Origin: Myxococcota bacterium
Lineage (GTDB): Bacteria; Myxococcota_A; UBA9042; PHBI01; JAWLBL01
NCBI GenBank assembly: GCA_041687695.1
Contig: JAWLBL010000003.1
Span: 279,660-343,659 of the forward strand
Direction: 5' to 3'
DNA: 64,000 nucleotides
In this document: positions 11,028 to 17,288 of the stretch, in pieces
Layout of the letters: every line of letters begins with the position of its first letter
Position numbering within the stretch: position 1 is the stretch's first letter
The notes under the pieces: generated by a model
The model's database searches: none
Seen by the model: the letters and a program-made list of their open reading frames with translations, nothing else
What the model was told of the DNA's origin: nothing
Made by a program: the position numbers and the translations under genes

Positions 11028-13244
11028 ATGATTGAGCTTCAAGCGGCACCGGCCCCCGCCGCCTCGACCGAGCCGACCGTCCGGGACATCCTGCAGCTGC
11101 TGCGGACCTACCACCCGCACGCGGACCTGAACCTGGTCCAGCGGGCGTTCGTGTTCGCCGAGCAGCACCACCGGCCGCAGCACCGCAAGAGCGGCGACCC
11201 GTACATCGGGCACCCGGTGGCGGTGGCGCACATCCTGTGTGGCATGAAGCTGGACGTGGCGTCGATCTGCGCGGCGCTGCTGCACGACACGGTCGAGGAC
11301 ACGCCGGCGACGCTGGACGACCTGAAGAACGTGTTCTCGGACGAGATCGCCGAGCTGGTCGACGGCGTGACCAAGCTGTCGAAGATCCGGTTCCGGTCGA
11401 GCGAGGAGAAGCAGGCCGAGAACTTCCGCAAGATGCTCATCGCGATGAGCCGGGACATCCGGGTCATCCTGGTCAAGCTGGCCGACCGCGTGCACAACAT
11501 GCGGACCCTGGGCCATCTGCCCGAGAAGAAGGCGGCGGGCATCGCGCGCGAGACGATGGACATCTTCGCGCCCCTGGCGAACCGGCTGGGGCTGGGCGCC
11601 ATCAAGATGGAGCTCGAGGACCTCTCGTTCCGCTACCTGCACCCCGAGGAGTTCGCCGAGCTGCGCGACAAGGTCGCCTCGCGGCTCAACGAGCGGCGCG
11701 ACTACATCGAGCGCGTGGTCGAGGATCTGCGCGGGACGCTCGAGGGCGAGGGCATCGAGGTCGAGGTCACCGGGCGCCCCAAGCACTTCTGGTCCATCCA
11801 CAGGAAGATGCAGAACCAGCGGGTCGCCTTCGAGAAGATCTACGACATCATGGCCTTCCGGGTCATCGTGGCCAAGCAGTCGCAGTGCTACCACGCGCTG
11901 GGCATCATCCACGAGCGCTGGCGGCCGGTGCCGGGGCGGTTCAAGGACTACATCGCGCTGCCCAAGCCGAACAAGTACCAGAGCCTGCACACGACGGTCA
12001 TCGGGCCCGAGGGGCAGCAGATCGAGGTGCAGATCCGGACCGAGGCCATGCACCGCGTGGCCGAGGGCGGCATCGCGGCGCACTGGCGCTACAAAGAGGG
12101 CAGCCGGCGCATCGAGCCCAAGGACGAAGAGCGCTTCGAGTGGCTCAAGCGCCTGATGGAGTGGCAGCAGGAGCTGGACGACCCCTCCGAGTTCCTCGAG
12201 TCGGTCAAGGTCGAGCTGTTCGCCGACGAGGTCTACACCTTCACGCCGCGCGGCGAGCTGAAGGTCCTGCCCCGCGGCTCGACCCCCATCGACTTCGCCT
12301 ACGCCATCCACTCCGAGGTGGGCAACACCTGCAGCGGCGCCATCGTCAACGGCTCCATCGTCCCGCTCAACACGCGCCTGCACAACGGCGACACGGTCGA
12401 GATCATCACGAGCCGCAACCAGCACCCCTCCAAGGACTGGCTGAAGTTCGTCCAGACCAACCGCGCCAGGAACCGCATCAAGGCCATCGTCCGCAAAGAG
12501 CAGCGCGAGCGCTCCATGGAGCTCGGCGAGCAGCTGCTCGACAAGGAGCTGCGCCGCTACTCGCGCTCCCTCGCCCGCGTCCGCAAGACGCCCGAGTTCA
12601 AGGAGTGCGCCACCCAGCACGGCTTCGACGACCCCGAGGAGCTCATCGTCCAGGTCGGCGCGGGTAACCTCACCGCCGAGACCATCGTCTCCTCCGTCCT
12701 GCCGCCCGACAAGACCGCCAAGCCCAAGCCGGTCCAGCCGGCGCCCGGCAACCCCATCACCCGCTTCATCCGTCGCGTCACCGGCGCCCCCTCCGGCGTC
12801 GTCGTCGACGGCCTCGACGGCGTCAAGCACACCATCGCCAAGTGCTGCTCGCCGGTCCCGGGCGAGCCCATCACCGGCTTCGTCACCCCCGGCCACGTCA
12901 TCTCGGTCCACCGCCGCGGCTGCCTAAACACCCTGGACATGGCGCCCGAGCGCCAGGTCGAGGTCCGCTGGGGCGAGGGCAACCAGGGCTATCCCGTCTG
13001 CCTGAGGGTCGTCACCGAGACCGGCGTCCCGGGCATCCTGACCCGGATGACCAAGGTCTTCAGCGATCTCCGCATCAACATCGACATGGCCAACTGCGCC
13101 GAGGCCACCGACGGCCGCGCCGTGAACGTCTTCCGCTTCCACGCCAAGCACCTGGACGAGCTCAACCAGGTCGTCCGGCGCCTGGGGGCCCTCAAGGGCG
13201 TCTTCACGGTGGAGCGTGTGAGGGACGAGGCGCAGGTTCACTAG
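11028..13244 (+). CDS. rel: Bifunctional (p)ppGpp synthetase/hydrolase (Rel/SpoT)
   Basis: Intact HD hydrolase motifs (RKSGDPYIGH, LHDTVED, ADRVHNMRT), synthetase RFKDY (RxKD) and YQSLHT, TGS domain (TPIDFAYAIH), CC zinc-finger region and C-terminal ACT domain. Alternative start at 11022. Confidence 0.95.
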   Translation: MIELQAAPAPAASTEPTVRDILQLLRTYHPHADLNLVQRAFVFAEQHHRPQHRKSGDPYIGHPVAVAHILCGMKLDVASICAALLHDTVEDTPATLDDLKNVFSDEIAELVDGVTKLSKIRFRSSEEKQAENFRKMLIAMSRDIRVILVKLADRVHNMRTLGHLPEKKAAGIARETMDIFAPLANRLGLGAIKMELEDLSFRYLHPEEFAELRDKVASRLNERRDYIERVVEDLRGTLEGEGIEVEVTGRPKHFWSIHRKMQNQRVAFEKIYDIMAFRVIVAKQSQCYHALGIIHERWRPVPGRFKDYIALPKPNKYQSLHTTVIGPEGQQIEVQIRTEAMHRVAEGGIAAHWRYKEGSRRIEPKDEERFEWLKRLMEWQQELDDPSEFLESVKVELFADEVYTFTPRGELKVLPRGSTPIDFAYAIHSEVGNTCSGAIVNGSIVPLNTRLHNGDTVEIITSRNQHPSKDWLKFVQTNRARNRIKAIVRKEQRERSMELGEQLLDKELRRYSRSLARVRKTPEFKECATQHGFDDPEELIVQVGAGNLTAETIVSSVLPPDKTAKPKPVQPAPGNPITRFIRRVTGAPSGVVVDGLDGVKHTIAKCCSPVPGEPITGFVTPGHVISVHRRGCLNTLDMAPERQVEVRWGEGNQGYPVCLRVVTETGVPGILTRMTKVFSDLRINIDMANCAEATDGRAVNVFRFHAKHLDELNQVVRRLGALKGVFTVERVRDEAQVH

Positions 13245-13331
13245 ACGGGCGGTGGCAGGGGTGGTCGGGAGGGGCAGACGCTCTGGCTTGGGGGGGTGGG
13301 TGTGGGGGGCGTGGGGGAGGTGGCCAAGGAT

Positions 13332-13504
13332 GCGGGACGCGGTTGAGGGAGAGTCGCGGTAGCCTCCGCTCCGGGCGGCCTCAAGGGCTTTGTCCCCCTT
13401 GGCCGGTCTGCACGGGGGGCGGCGGCGGGACGCGGGACGCGGTTGAGGGAGAGTCGCGGTAGCCTCCGCTCCGGGCGGCCTCAAGGGCTTTGTCCCCCTT
13501 GGCC
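13332..13504. repeat. 73-bp direct duplication with 100-bp period (partial extra copy of the hairpin element end)
   Basis: GCGGGACGCGGTTGAGGGAGAGTCGCGGTAGCCTCCGCT...TGTCCCCCTTGGCC occurs at 13332-13404 and 13432-13504. Confidence 0.9.
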
Positions 13505-13770
13505 CGCCCTGCGGGCGGTCCAATTCCTCGCGGACGACAAAGCCCTTGACCCCGCCCTCCGCTGCGGCTGGGCAGGCCAACATCGGCCCGGAACGGGGCG
13601 TTCCGGGCCGCGGAGCGTCCCGTCCGTCCGCGGGCGGTCGCTGGGCGCCAGGCGGGTCACTGGCGCGGACTTCGGCCGGCCTCACGCTCCAGCGGTCATC
13701 CGCACTCCCGATGAGAACTAAACGCATGGCTAATTAATCGTCCCGGGACGGAAACCAGAACCTGAGTTCG
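13453..13770 (-). repeat. ~320-bp composite repeat unit, copy 1 (inverted, most diverged)
   Basis: Reverse complement matches copies 2-4 at both ends: palindrome plus AT-rich site at 13715-13770, hairpins at 13461-13610. The middle is diverged. Confidence 0.85.
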
Positions 13771-13832
13771 GCTTTCCGCCCGGGACGACGAGCGCCGGGT
13801 CGGAGCCGGCCTCCGCGTCGCGTAATCGCACC

Positions 13833-14178
13833 GGGGCGGAAGCGCGAACCTGGATTCTGCTTTCCGTCCCGGGACGACGGCGGGCTGGTCGCCAGGTTTC
13901 CGCCCCGGGGCGGAAACGCGAACCTGGATTCTGCTTTCCGTCCCGGGACGACGGCGCGCCTGGTCGCCAGGTCACCGTCCCGGGGGCGGAAGCGCGAACC
14001 TGGATTCTGCTTTCCGTCCCGGGACGACGGCGGGCTGGTCGCCAGGTTTCCGCCCCGGGGCGGAAACGCGAACCTGGATTCTGCTTTCCGTCCCGGGACG
14101 ACGGCGCGCCTGGTCGCCAGGTCACCGTCCCGGGGGCGGAAACGCGAACCTGGATTCTGCTTTCCGTCCCGGGACGAC
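13833..14178. repeat. Tandem array of alternating 74- and 76-bp units (150-bp period) built from CCCGGG-centred palindromes
   Basis: CGCGAACCTGGATTCTGCTTTCCGTCCCGGGACGAC occurs 5 times. Perfect 20-bp palindrome TTTCCGCCCCGGGGCGGAAA at 13897 and 14047. Confidence 0.95.
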
Positions 14179-14470
14179 TAACTATGTGATCGTTTAATTC
14201 CGTCATGGATGGCTCCCGCTTCAGGCGCTCCGGCCCATCCTGCCGACCAGCGACCCCATCTCCGCACCGGCGATCTACCTTGCACCCAGGCCACGCAGCG
14301 CGACCGGGACGCGCAAGCGGCCCGGACGGCCCCCGTCCGGGCCGATGTTGGCCACCCAGCCGCAGCGGAGGCCGGGGTCAAGGGCTTTGTCGTCCGCGAG
14401 GAATTGGCCGGCCGCAGGTCGGCCAAGGGGGACAAAGCCCTTGAGGCCGGCCGGAGCGAAGGCTACCCGC
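14136..14470 (+). repeat. ~330-bp composite repeat unit, copy 2
   Basis: Palindrome, then GACTAACTA-N6-CGTTTAATTC, then CCTGCCGACCAGCGACCCCATCTCCGCACCGG, a small hairpin, and the 107-nt hairpin at 14358-14464. Confidence 0.9.
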
Positions 14471-14634
14471 TACCATCCCTGTCGCCCAAGGCCCGTTCTC
14501 TGTCCCGGGACGACGGCGCGCGCCTGGTCGCCAGGTCACCGTCCCGGGGCGGAAACGAGATCCAGCATTCCAGTTTCCGTCCCGGGACGACGCGCGCCGG
14601 GTCGAGCCGGCCCCTGTCGCGTTTCCGCCCCGAG

Positions 14635-14972
14635 GCGGAAACGCGAACCTGCATTCTGCTTTCCGTCCCGGGACGACTAACTATGCGCTCGTTTAATTCC
14701 TTGAGAGATGGCTCCCGCTCCAGACGCCCCGGCCCATCCTGCCGACCAGCGACCCCATCTCCGCACCGGCCACGCTGCTTGCACCCGTGGCCATGCAGCG
14801 CGACCGGGACGCGTAAGCGGCCCGGACGGCCCCGTCCGGGCCGATGTTAGCTTCCCAGCCGCAGCGGAGGACGGGGTCAAGGGCTTTGTCGTCCGCGAGG
14901 AATTGGCCGGCCGCAGGTCGGCCAAGGGGGACAAAGCCCTCGAGGCCGGCCGAAGCGGAGGCTAGCTGCGAC
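14635..14972 (+). repeat. ~330-bp composite repeat unit, copy 3
   Basis: Same order of motifs as copy 2; large hairpin at 14857-14963. Confidence 0.9.
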
Positions 14973-15060
14973 CCAACCCAATGCTAATGTCCGCGGGCGA
15001 CGCCGCGCCCGTTCGCCAGGTCTCCGCCCCGGGGCGGGGCGCCAGGTCTCCGCCCCGGGA

Positions 15061-15393
15061 CGGAAACGCGAACCTGAATTCTGCTTTCCGTCCCGGGACG
15101 ACTAACTACGCACCCGTTTAATTCTGCGCATGGGTCTCGCTCCTGTTGCTTCGGCTCACCCTGCCGACCAGCGACCCCATCTCCGCACCGGCCACGCTGC
15201 TTGCACCCGTGGCCATGCAGCGCGACCGGGACGCGCAAGCGGCCCGGACGGCCAGTCCGGGCCGATGTTGGCCACCCAGCCGCAGCGAAGGCCGGGGTCA
15301 AGGGCTTTGTCGTCCGCGAGGAATTGGCCGGCCGCAGGTCGGCCAAGGGGGACAAAGCCCTCGAGGCCGGCCGGAGCGAAGGCTACCCGCGAC
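15061..15393 (+). repeat. ~330-bp composite repeat unit, copy 4
   Basis: Same order of motifs as copy 2; large hairpin at 15278-15384. Confidence 0.9.
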
Positions 15394-15490
15394 CATCCTT
15401 GTCGCCCTGAAGGTGGAGCGTCGCCCCGGGGAGGGGGCCCGCGAACCGCAGCGCCCGAGACCGCTCATGTCGACCGCGCCACCCACAACC

Positions 15491-15533
15491 CACAAACACG
15501 AAAGCCCCACCTGGTCACCCAGGCGGGGCTCTC
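15491..15533 (-). terminator. Probable Rho-independent terminator of the glyQS-ppdK-lipoprotein gene run
   Basis: Minus strand reads GAGAGCCCCGCCTGG-GTGA-CCAGGTGGGGCTTTC followed by GTGTTTGT, 22 nt after the stop at 15555. Confidence 0.7.
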
Positions 15534-15554
15534 GCAGCTCGTCAGCGCCGCGAC

Positions 15555-17288
15555 TCAGTCGGCCTGGGCCGCCGCGTCCTCGTCGGCCGCCGCGTCCTCG
15601 GTCGCCGTGTCTTCGGTCGCCACGTCGTCGCCGGTCGTGGCGTCGTCGCCGGTCGTGGCGTCGTCGCCGGGGCCGGCGTCATCCATCACCTCGGGCTCGG
15701 GGCCGACGTCGGTGGTGACCGCGTCGTCCTCGACCACGTCGGTGGTCCCGGCGTCCTCGTCGGTCAGCTCGGGGTCGGGATCGGCGGGGCCGGCGTCCTC
15801 GATGAGGTCGGCGAGCGAGCGCGGGGCGATGCGGTACTGCTCGAAGTTGTAGCGGACGACGCCGATGATGGCGTCCCAGTGCTGGCCGACCTCCGGCTTG
15901 GTCAGGGCGGTCGTGCCCAGGATGGAGCGGTCCATCAGCAGGCCGCCGGTGAAGGTGACGTAGCCGTTGTTGTCCCAGGCATTGTTCGAGGCGACGGTCA
16001 GGTCGGTGACCTCGACCAGCATGCCCTCCCAGAGCTCGGCCTCGGCCGTCAGCTCGTCCTCGGTCAGCAGGACCGGGGTGGGCACGTCGGCCTCGCCGAT
16101 GGCCTGGATGCTGGTCGCCTTGACCTGGGTCATGCAGTAGAACTCGGTGTGGTCACCGGTCAGCTTGACGACCTGGCCCAGCTGGAAGTTCGTGTTCTTG
16201 CTCTTGTCGACGACGACGTTGATGCCGCTGTAGGGCTCCTGCGAGCCGTCGGCGATGTAGTAGCCGTGCAGGTTGGCCGCGGCGCTGAACTGGCCGACGG
16301 TGACCACGCCCTGGAGCTGGGCGCCCTTGGTGAAGTTCTGGATCTGCTGGACCGTGCAGTCCTTGCTCTCGGGGCTGCCCTGGATGGCGACGATGCCCGA
16401 GGCGGTCGGGTCCGCGTCGGTCGTGCCGCCGTCGGTCTCTTCGCCCGCGTCGGGGCCCGGGCCGCCGCCGACCAGGACCACGTCGTCGGCGCTGGGCGGG
16501 TTGAGGCGGTACTTGTCGAACGAGAAGGCCATGAACCCGGTCAGCTCGTAGGTCTTGCCGACCTCCATGCTGAGGAAGAAGTCGAACTGGTGCGCGACGA
16601 CGAAGCCGCCCTGCGTGAGGTAGGTCCCGCCGCCGGCCGCCTCGACGACCTTGTCGGTCGTGTGCAGGAACATGCCCTCGTAGGCCTCGCTGGCCACGTG
16701 CTGGGGCGCCACCGTCAGCGGGGCCGGGACCTCGGCCGTGCCGGTCTTGGTCCAGCCGTCGAGGTCGAGCTGCGTCTGGCAGTAGTACTCCTCGAGCTCG
16801 CCCTGCAGATCCATGACGTCGCCGGGCTGGAAGTCGGTCGCCTCGGAGCGCGGCACGACCACGGCCAAGCCCGAGAACAGCCCGCCGTCGGGGTCGGCGA
16901 CGTAGTAGCCGTCGAGCGCGGTGCCGGTGTCGCCCGAGGGCGTGTAGGCGTCGAACTTCGGGCTGACGACGACCACGCCCGACAGGCTGACGCTGTCGAG
17001 CACGGTGACGAAGTTGCTCGCCGTGCAGTCGACCTTCTCGGCCTCGAGCTGGGCGTACTTGACGGTGCCGACCGGCGCCTCGTAGCCGTCGGGCAGGGTC
17101 GGGGCGTCGCCCTCGTCCGTGTCCGTGAGCGTGCCGTCGGGGCCGCTGGTCTGGTCCCCGCCAGCGTCGGTCACCGTGGTGTCCTTGATGGCGTCGAAGT
17201 CTTTGACCGGGGTGTTCGTGCCGCTATCGGTGCAGGCGACGAGGAGGGCGCTCAGGGCGAGCGAGGAGGCGGCGCTTCGGAGGGTCAT
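15555..17288 (-). CDS. Lipoprotein with two tandem OB-fold-like modules (similar to the non-catalytic N-terminal region of ExeM/YhcR-type nucleases) and an acidic tail
   Basis: Start MTLRSAASS with lipobox LLVAC. Internal duplication GVV..GYY.AD....SG..VVV......FQ.G.V..L.G...E.YC.TQ....P.P....E..EGM. C-terminal DDATTG repeats. Confidence 0.7.
   Translation of the reverse strand: MTLRSAASSLALSALLVACTDSGTNTPVKDFDAIKDTTVTDAGGDQTSGPDGTLTDTDEGDAPTLPDGYEAPVGTVKYAQLEAEKVDCTASNFVTVLDSVSLSGVVVVSPKFDAYTPSGDTGTALDGYYVADPDGGLFSGLAVVVPRSEATDFQPGDVMDLQGELEEYYCQTQLDLDGWTKTGTAEVPAPLTVAPQHVASEAYEGMFLHTTDKVVEAAGGGTYLTQGGFVVAHQFDFFLSMEVGKTYELTGFMAFSFDKYRLNPPSADDVVLVGGGPGPDAGEETDGGTTDADPTASGIVAIQGSPESKDCTVQQIQNFTKGAQLQGVVTVGQFSAAANLHGYYIADGSQEPYSGINVVVDKSKNTNFQLGQVVKLTGDHTEFYCMTQVKATSIQAIGEADVPTPVLLTEDELTAEAELWEGMLVEVTDLTVASNNAWDNNGYVTFTGGLLMDRSILGTTALTKPEVGQHWDAIIGVVRYNFEQYRIAPRSLADLIEDAGPADPDPELTDEDAGTTDVVEDDAVTTDVGPEPEVMDDAGPGDDATTGDDATTGDDVATEDTATEDAAADEDAAAQAD

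Follow-up and report, generated by a model that had tools for sequence, protein, structure and literature searches.

Genes of the 13E12/DUF222-HNH type, known in Mycobacterium tuberculosis as REP13E12 and described as repeats in 1999 (as cited in PMC10589994), are dispersed in multiple copies and combine an N-terminal domain, homologous to that of the genes studied here, with a C-terminal HNH domain. In M. tuberculosis, six members are reported to be bound by LexA (PMC3381160). In the accessible parts of this literature, we found no description of flanking palindrome arrays, hairpin inverted ends or gene-less derivatives. Here we analyse a repeat locus in a window of 64,000 nucleotides (the whole stretch of DNA under study, from contig JAWLBL010000003.1 of a Myxococcota bacterium) and compare it with the rest of the genome (a 7.97 Mb assembly of 73% GC, designated G000, in which the window lies on contig C3). 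The locus is very probably a gene-less member of a family of about 25 scattered elements built around an HNH nuclease gene, and it is likely, though less firmly so, that it inserted beside rel with the help of the nuclease of another copy. The genes of the family share the dispersal and the domain order of 13E12; they differ in that the Pfam DUF222 model matches weakly, in 7 of 97 family members, and the locus in the window is without any gene.

Another close group is formed by the REPIN-RAYT pairs and TIRtrons (PMC3733652). These resemble the present family in that inverted ends rich in hairpins surround a gene, some copies are non-autonomous, the terminus is GTAG (in REPIN-RAYT systems, a GTAG or CGTC tag closes the palindrome), the target site is not duplicated, and the copies are slow and diverged. 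The enzyme, however, is different: the gene enclosed in a TIRtron is a Y1 transposase, while here it encodes an HNH protein and not a Y1/HUH enzyme (the string 'HNH' occurs 0 times in PMC3733652). Furthermore, repetitive extragenic palindromes (REPs) are given there as 20-40 bp long, compared with 165 bp for the terminal repeat found here; the gene is multicopy here and gene-less forms are few, the unit is 330 bp long with binding-site arrays, and there is no set of many stand-alone copies (one terminal repeat out of 43 is solo).

The initial annotation of the locus had described a non-coding unit of about 330 bp present four times, the first copy being inverted relative to the second so that the pair encloses a central palindrome array. 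This was borne out: the four units measure 328-341 bp and are 80-92% alike (80-86% for copy 1 against copies 2-4, 91-92% among copies 2-4), and the arms at 13514-13572 and 14355-14413 are complementary at 95%. Each unit consists of a core palindrome, an AT-rich site (one per unit, at 13716, 14179, 14678 and 15103), a linker, a small hairpin and a long hairpin with terminal GGCTAC. As had also been stated, the region has no credible coding sequence, the five open reading frames (ORFs) that overlap it being without Pfam match.

The outer 165 bp or so of the unit was designated END. A genome-wide search, which the annotation had recommended, gave 48 END matches, 43 of them at least 95 bp long: 26 lie beside an HNH gene, three gene-less loci account for 8, another 8 are at contig ends, and the last one is solo. 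Pairs of ENDs facing outward, 2-3 kb apart, enclose one ORF of about 390 amino acids, which carries an HNH motif in its C-terminal part. Near-full copies of this gene number 22 (those compared with the protein P0001 are 54-89% identical to it), and the same END, AT-rich site and core surround them. Two further predictions thus hold, namely that the locus is a non-autonomous element with a fixed grammar and that its protein partner is encoded elsewhere. The order of a full element is END, AT-rich site, palindrome array, leader, HNH gene; among the loci listed, the region upstream of the gene carries a conserved leader, a CGYCCCGGGRCG array of variable length, usually an AT-rich site, and an END. 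An upstream END is found at 19 of the 22 genes, the remaining three reaching contig ends, and a downstream END at 7.

Counts of the 12-bp core are 323 for the 117 kb surrounding elements and 29 for the remaining 7.86 Mb (about 750-fold enrichment), a concentration which excludes chance as the source of the repeat pattern; the AT-rich site, searched with a looser pattern, occurs 15 times at elements and nowhere else in the genome. Of the 22 HNH ORFs, 19 have a core no more than 60 nt from the stop codon (random background 1.2%), and 21 have one inside the coding sequence, mostly near nt 445 in clade A or nt 505 in clade B, where the linker after the N-terminal domain is encoded. Most arrays in this genome have a spacing of 24-32 bp. 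CCCGGG is not avoided genome-wide (observed/expected 0.92).

END termini are sharp and their flanks unrelated. Among 23 aligned copies, 22 start with GTAG or are trimmed at GTAG, and 40 of 42 flanks are rich in C when read on the outward strand. No consistent target-site duplication was detected in the 8 two-ended loci (0-5 nt, with varying offsets). Within END stems, 11 of 31 tested pairs change on both sides, a number reached in 0 of 500 shuffles and compared with 0-3 pairs in slid controls, although the shuffle leaves relatedness in, the alignment covers 23 of 43 ENDs, and it also served to derive the structure. At five loci there are partial outer copies of END, six in all, which start at positions 102-138 of the 164-bp END, that is, in or beside the top of the long hairpin. 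The idea that both ENDs are regenerated from one template at insertion was not supported, the two ENDs of one element being mutual best matches in 2 of 7 pairs.

The sharp GTAG terminus, the covarying hairpin and the missing target-site duplication could also be read as those of a large REP/REPIN moved by a RAYT-type Y1 enzyme, the HNH cassette and arrays being passengers and the locus in the window a REPIN-like doublet. The genome does contain 11 Y1 genes, and other small hairpins are inserted inside elements. Yet none of the 11 Y1 genes carries or adjoins the unit or the core (best match 17 bp, E 0.008; several of these genes are near contig ends, with flanks partly missing), whereas 26 of 43 ENDs adjoin an HNH gene. 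A RAYT partner is therefore disfavoured, and the same distribution speaks against the HUH/RAYT or IS200 enzyme that had been suggested at first; a tyrosine recombinase, also suggested, is likewise unsupported, the partner being an HNH protein. Moreover, a single END out of 43 is solo without being at a contig end, and in a genome of another family (G011, see below) an unrelated inverted repeat is again found beside HNH genes only (17 of 17 long matches, with 40 of 191 candidates scored). We consider the REPIN explanation unlikely.

As a separate observation, Y1 genes at C26:55485, C22:44011, C59:3211 and C59:6124 are flanked by inverted repeats of their own, unrelated to END, and are likely to be distinct REPtron/TIRtron elements. 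Elements at C1:454999, C2:134032, C3:116300 and on C8, C9, C12, C22 and C46 have other, unrelated small hairpin repeats inserted into their array or small hairpin, which indicates that the elements attract other repeats.

Placed against this family, the locus in the window is an element without leader and gene, whose right end has been re-duplicated twice. Its parts are the following:

13328..13427, no strand: tandem duplication of the outer left flank and the outer third of END1 (100 bp; 99% over 77 nt), with a partial fifth END at 13358-13411

13458..13622, plus strand: END1, the left terminal inverted repeat, a long hairpin starting with GTAG and a small hairpin (genome comparison and covariation)

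13623..13715, plus strand: linker of unit 1, poorly conserved (sequence)

13716..13736, minus strand: AT-rich site of unit 1, TAAYTA-N6-CGTTTARTT (looser pattern, with the counts given above)

13737..14178, no strand: central array of CGYCCCGGGRCG cores with an exact 150-bp duplication inside, at the position held by leader and HNH gene in full elements

14179..14199, plus strand: AT-rich site of unit 2 (pattern match)

14305..14467, minus strand: END2, whose terminus reads GTAG on the minus strand; the next 25 bp or so are similar to the true right flank (genome comparison)

14468..14964, no strand: first local re-duplication, 499 bp, made of a flank remnant, a short array, the AT-rich site 14678-14698, a linker and END3 (repeat comparison)

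14965..15387, no strand: second local re-duplication, 421 bp, made of a short degenerate array, the AT-rich site 15103-15123, a linker and END4, the outer right terminus of the locus (repeat comparison)

13238..15672, no strand: empty-site interval, 2,435 nt here and 224 nt in the contigs of a relative (three public runs)

In the central array, CCCGGG centres are spaced by 36-39 bp, and the exact duplication joins 13833-13982 to 13983-14132; the array at 13822-14178 shows a period of 74-75 bp, with GAAC-N4-RTTC in every second spacer. Sequence comparison detected no remnant of leader or HNH gene in the window apart from the core. Since END2, END3 and END4 are each other's closest ENDs genome-wide, the 499- and 421-bp copies arose in place; at each junction, a short stretch from beyond the END is joined to a core or a degenerate core. 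Similar tandem copies exist at C47, C9, C13, C33 and C2, which, with the 8-20% divergence between the four units, each having its own variants, and the absence of N letters within the region, leaves next to no credence for an assembly artefact as the origin of the re-duplicated structure. In favour of such an artefact are the 100% identity of the 150-bp duplication, the frequent interruption of contigs at arrays (contig ends hold 8 of 43 ENDs) and the fact that no public run of this strain was found in which the assembly could be checked. At most, an assembly error could affect the number of array units.

On the left the locus is flanked by rel (RelA/SpoT), and on the right by a convergent gene which matches the ExeM/NucH nuclease model weakly (81 bits, for a cut-off of 300). 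A terminator-like hairpin at 15500-15535, between the element and the convergent gene, probably belongs to the original intergenic region.

Three gene-less loci were found, on three contigs: the one in the window, C7:201564-202477 and C27:85545-86550. A spacer palindrome, GAAY-N4-RTTC, stands beside cores at all three (14 occurrences) and at none of the 22 gene loci. As this motif is confined to gene-less loci, it suggests that they form a non-autonomous lineage which spread after losing the gene. An empty site was then identified in a relative, about 92% identical over rel: its contig covers position 13237 of the window and, after 224 nt, resumes at 15673. The empty site is seen in all three public runs concerned (X1, X2 and X3, from two studies), where probably one species has been sampled three times, and in run X1 no bin within the element reaches the depth expected for an END on that contig. 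An exact 23-mer of END had 0 matches in the metagenome contigs and genome contigs searched. With the element missing at the same spot in the relative, it likely arrived by insertion, and this is the simpler reading of the empty site since the sequence is present at about 25 loci. Terminal inverted repeats common with an autonomous partner, the absence of an ORF and the empty site are also features of miniature inverted-repeat transposable elements (MITEs). The present elements differ from these in that the partner has no DDE transposase, no consistent target-site duplication is found, and the internal arrays vary in length.

The HNH genes appear to be maintained. Reading frames are open through the HNH motif in 22 of 22 genes, one of which lacks its 5' end, and the median ratio of nonsynonymous to synonymous divergence (dN/dS) is 0.34 over 231 pairs, with a minimum dS of 0.16; the genes are thus under selection, yet not recently copied. 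This purifying selection without recent copies would also fit a domesticated, SOS-linked nuclease for which the arrays are operators or parS-like loading sites, the copies being old, rearranged through host recombination and slippage only, and the locus in the window an inert deletion relic. The cores inside the gene and just upstream of the leader are placed like operators, the predicted fold of the protein (see below) is ParB-like, and 13E12 genes of M. tuberculosis are bound by LexA (PMC3381160) and are reported at recombination breakpoints (PMC13157036). Such an immobile system keeps some probability because recent copies are lacking. It accounts poorly, however, for the empty site in the relative and for sharp END termini with unrelated flanks, and the derived spacer common to the three gene-less loci is a better fit to spread after gene loss than to three deletions. 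We hold domestication to be rather improbable, and prefer insertion of a gene-less element.

The partner protein was characterized by profile and structure comparisons. Among 97 homologs, Pfam recognized HNH in 64 and DUF222 weakly in 7 (E <= 0.01, best 3e-4); Pfam and NCBIfam searches with the partner itself gave HNH-type matches only, and the sequence search of the PDB weak HNH matches only. When the family profile was aligned to the classical DUF222-HNH gene of this genome, hhalign returned a probability of 97.7% (E 2e-12, 113 columns), which places the partner, by profile comparison, as a distant 13E12/DUF222-HNH protein. One homolog is named from Polyangiaceae, and the nearest Atlas clusters are commonest in Myxococcota. 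With 20,092 cluster representatives at E <= 0.001 for the N-terminal domain, the family is very large. No match was obtained against plasmids and phages. A RuvA C-terminal domain is matched at the C-terminus of 6 of 97 homologs (best E 8e-10), which may connect the family with branch migration at junctions.

The AlphaFold model (pLDDT 85) comprises three parts, residues 26-137, 191-249 and 274-354. The last is the HNH domain (Z 8.0 to a phage HNH nuclease, root mean square deviation (rmsd) 5.9 over 78 residues). The middle part, one strand and two helices, resembles a plasmid ParB domain (Z 4.7) which we take to be ribbon-helix-helix. For the N-terminal part, modelled alone with pLDDT 94, the top four VIA matches were KorB, ParB on parS, KorB and Spo0J (Z 6.9-6.0; in detail KorB Z 6.9, rmsd 3.7, 97 aligned; ParB Z 6.9, rmsd 4.8, 101 aligned; Spo0J Z 6.0, rmsd 2.9, 91 aligned), with the next unrelated fold at Z 5.6, and the top nine Foldseek rows were Noc or ParB, at non-significant E. 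The domain is thereby predicted to resemble the palindrome-binding domain of ParB and KorB, the scores being middling but the matches in agreement. ParB-family proteins bind as dimers to 16-bp palindromes. The ParB-like partner proposed in the annotation was therefore right in part, as regards the predicted N-terminal domain, although the protein is an HNH nuclease. Like the parS, OB or NBS sites of ParB, KorB and Noc, the palindromes here are of 16-18 bp and differ between lineages. Unlike those systems, the partner has no ParB CTPase (ParBc) domain in Pfam scans, the matched helical domain starting near residue 26; an HNH domain is fused instead, and the sites travel with the gene.

An HNH domain with a separate DNA-binding module is also the architecture of free-standing HNH homing endonucleases, and spread by way of host repair, as predicted here, would be common to both. 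Homing endonucleases spread between alleles of one locus and destroy their own site. The present element, in contrast, holds many copies of its own site, at about 25 unrelated loci.

The compensatory changes in END stems, together with the resemblance of the partner's HNH domain to those of IscB and Cas9, raise the question of a structured non-coding RNA, for instance a guide scaffold like the omega RNA of IscB, with arrays acting as guide-like repeats. The Rfam scan, run as had been advised, gave no match at gathering score anywhere in the window, and 8 element loci gave 2 chance-level matches, both in G011. The IscB model (NF040563) reaches about 30 bits for a cut-off of 175 and covers the HNH part only, which, with no Rfam match, sets the family apart from OMEGA IscB/HEARO systems (RuvC and HNH with an RNA). 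In a CRISPR array spacers are unique, while those in the window are tandem duplicates, and no CRISPR repeat family was matched at gathering score. ENDs, furthermore, occur in inverted pairs, and a scan for sigma-70-like promoters and terminators, which is weak for this organism, detected none in the locus. We give very little credence to the RNA explanation.

In 21 of 22 HNH genes, the leader contains a LexA-like box, near CTGAAC-N4-GTCCAG in sequence, with a -10-like motif exactly 28 nt downstream of it. With at most 2 mismatches to the M. xanthus LexA box (PMC9705874), there are 20 matches in leaders and 49 elsewhere in the genome. The perfect symmetric version stands in front of dnaE2 and of a PA0069 radical SAM gene, while the classical DUF222 gene has a near form upstream. 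From these sequences, and given the binding of LexA to six M. tuberculosis 13E12 genes (PMC3381160), we infer that the HNH genes may be under SOS control. The possibility that the leader is a structured RNA was rejected, as it folds no better than shuffles (z -0.9 to 1.5, 23 loci).

Two side observations concern this region. Leaders of the HNH genes (for example L002:1270-1450, L029, L043 and L045) have a -35-like TTGAC and an extended -10-like GTG.TA in an arrangement resembling a split promoter. In a search restricted to spacings of 160-240 nt, the distance between the two is 170-171 nt in 21 of 22 leaders of this genome and 167-184 nt for 23 of 24 loci in 9 other genomes; the spacer is unconserved between genomes and without RNA fold. 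At L081:975-1300 (C9, about 212270-212600), GTCCCGGGAC palindromes alternate with a perfect LexA-like box at an 86-bp period, without END or HNH gene, upstream of a pair that looks by eye like a toxin-antitoxin system.

Array units differ with the protein. CCGCCCC half-sites number 0-3 at the 7 clade-B loci and 6-37 at the 15 clade-A loci, so that the array unit follows the protein clade, a match which could come from shared descent alone (the protein tree was used for this split only, and C1_169789, C3_114763 and C31_101983 were assigned from translations).

We then turned to other genomes. END DNA was found in 0 of 30 relatives, none of which is of the same family, while the partner protein matched in 11 of the 30, strongly in five, and at E <= 1e-30 in at least 7 of 150 further genomes of the phylum. 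In G011, an inverted repeat of 220-260 bp, also rich in hairpins but different from END, lies on both sides of 8 out of 9 homologous genes. The palindrome differs as well (CCCCGGGG): the form ACAGTCCCCGGGGACTGT occurs 35 times, 29 of them at HNH genes, compared with 0 for the reversed control. Judged from these repeats, G011 reproduces the design in other sequences. Palindromes centred on CCGG, but with arms of their own, are present at 5 of 6 loci of G058, 2 of 4 of G082, and one locus each of G015 and G022. It follows from this comparison that the constant parts are gene, leader and often palindrome, END being a lineage-specific addition. G011 also has solo sites (L071:587-640 and L072), made of a short hairpin, a palindrome and an AT-rich repeat without inverted repeat or gene, two of which, in direct orientation, enclose about 470 bp at L072; these could be footprints or targets. 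A period of 74-75 bp, or about seven helical turns, is common to G011 arrays (L070, at the end of G011:C5) and the array in the window.

The following sequence of events may be proposed. DNA damage would lift LexA off the box in the leader of an HNH gene. A dimer of the HNH protein would bind the 12-18 bp palindromes through its predicted ParB/KorB-like domain, the middle part possibly contributing a ribbon-helix-helix, and the HNH domain would make a nick next to the array, either at the AT-rich site or at the extruded hairpin. Host repair synthesis from the nick would then copy the element into a new site without target-site duplication, while repeated nicking and template slippage would yield tandem re-duplications. 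Loss of leader and gene between the upstream and downstream arrays would leave END, array and END, with every cis site kept, and this gene-less form would later be moved in trans and re-duplicated. Movement of the locus in trans by the HNH protein seems to us somewhat more likely than not; for the nick-and-copy chemistry itself, our confidence falls somewhat short of even.

A number of points weigh against this scheme. HNH domains cut DNA and do not join strands, and no known strand-transfer domain was recognized in the partner protein. The gene copies include no near-identical pair, and hence nothing points to recent movement; a downstream END is absent from at least 14 of 22 HNH genes, and the two ENDs of one element are mutual best matches in 2 of 7 pairs only. 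A single locus gave an empty site, and comparison with one relative does not settle which way the change went. The ParB-like matches are middling (Foldseek E 0.75 or worse), and the limits given above apply to END covariation and to the array-clade match. In G011, the module of palindrome, AT-rich site and hairpin faces inward and not outward, and the LexA-like box is not seen at the matching place in the leaders. Finally, homologs in G044, G070, G089 and G144 have no convincing CCGG-centred palindrome nearby, nor has G020.

As far as our searches show, the protein family is known yet unexplained, MITEs and REPINs being known in principle. Our literature search, which did not extend to subscription papers, returned no description of this architecture or of a gene-less derivative, and no paper on how 13E12/DUF222-HNH repeats multiply. 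To this family the locus adds a gene-less subfamily, an empty site, a predicted ParB-like domain and a LexA-like box. It also defines a minimal cis element (END, AT-rich site and palindrome array) that is free of the gene and has a matching empty site, which makes the binding of palindromes by the nuclease and the movement of a mini-element directly testable. Tentatively, and with less than even odds, we suggest that 13E12/DUF222-type HNH genes may be widespread SOS-triggered transposable elements, in which a ParB-like palindrome binder is fused to an HNH nickase, with parS-like arrays of their own, nick-primed copying by host repair without a known transposase, and gene-less parasites including the present locus. 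If true, this would amount to a new transposition chemistry and would provide a compact site-specific nickase with natural specificity variants; spread by a palindrome-binding nuclease would be a route hitherto shown for no such gene family.

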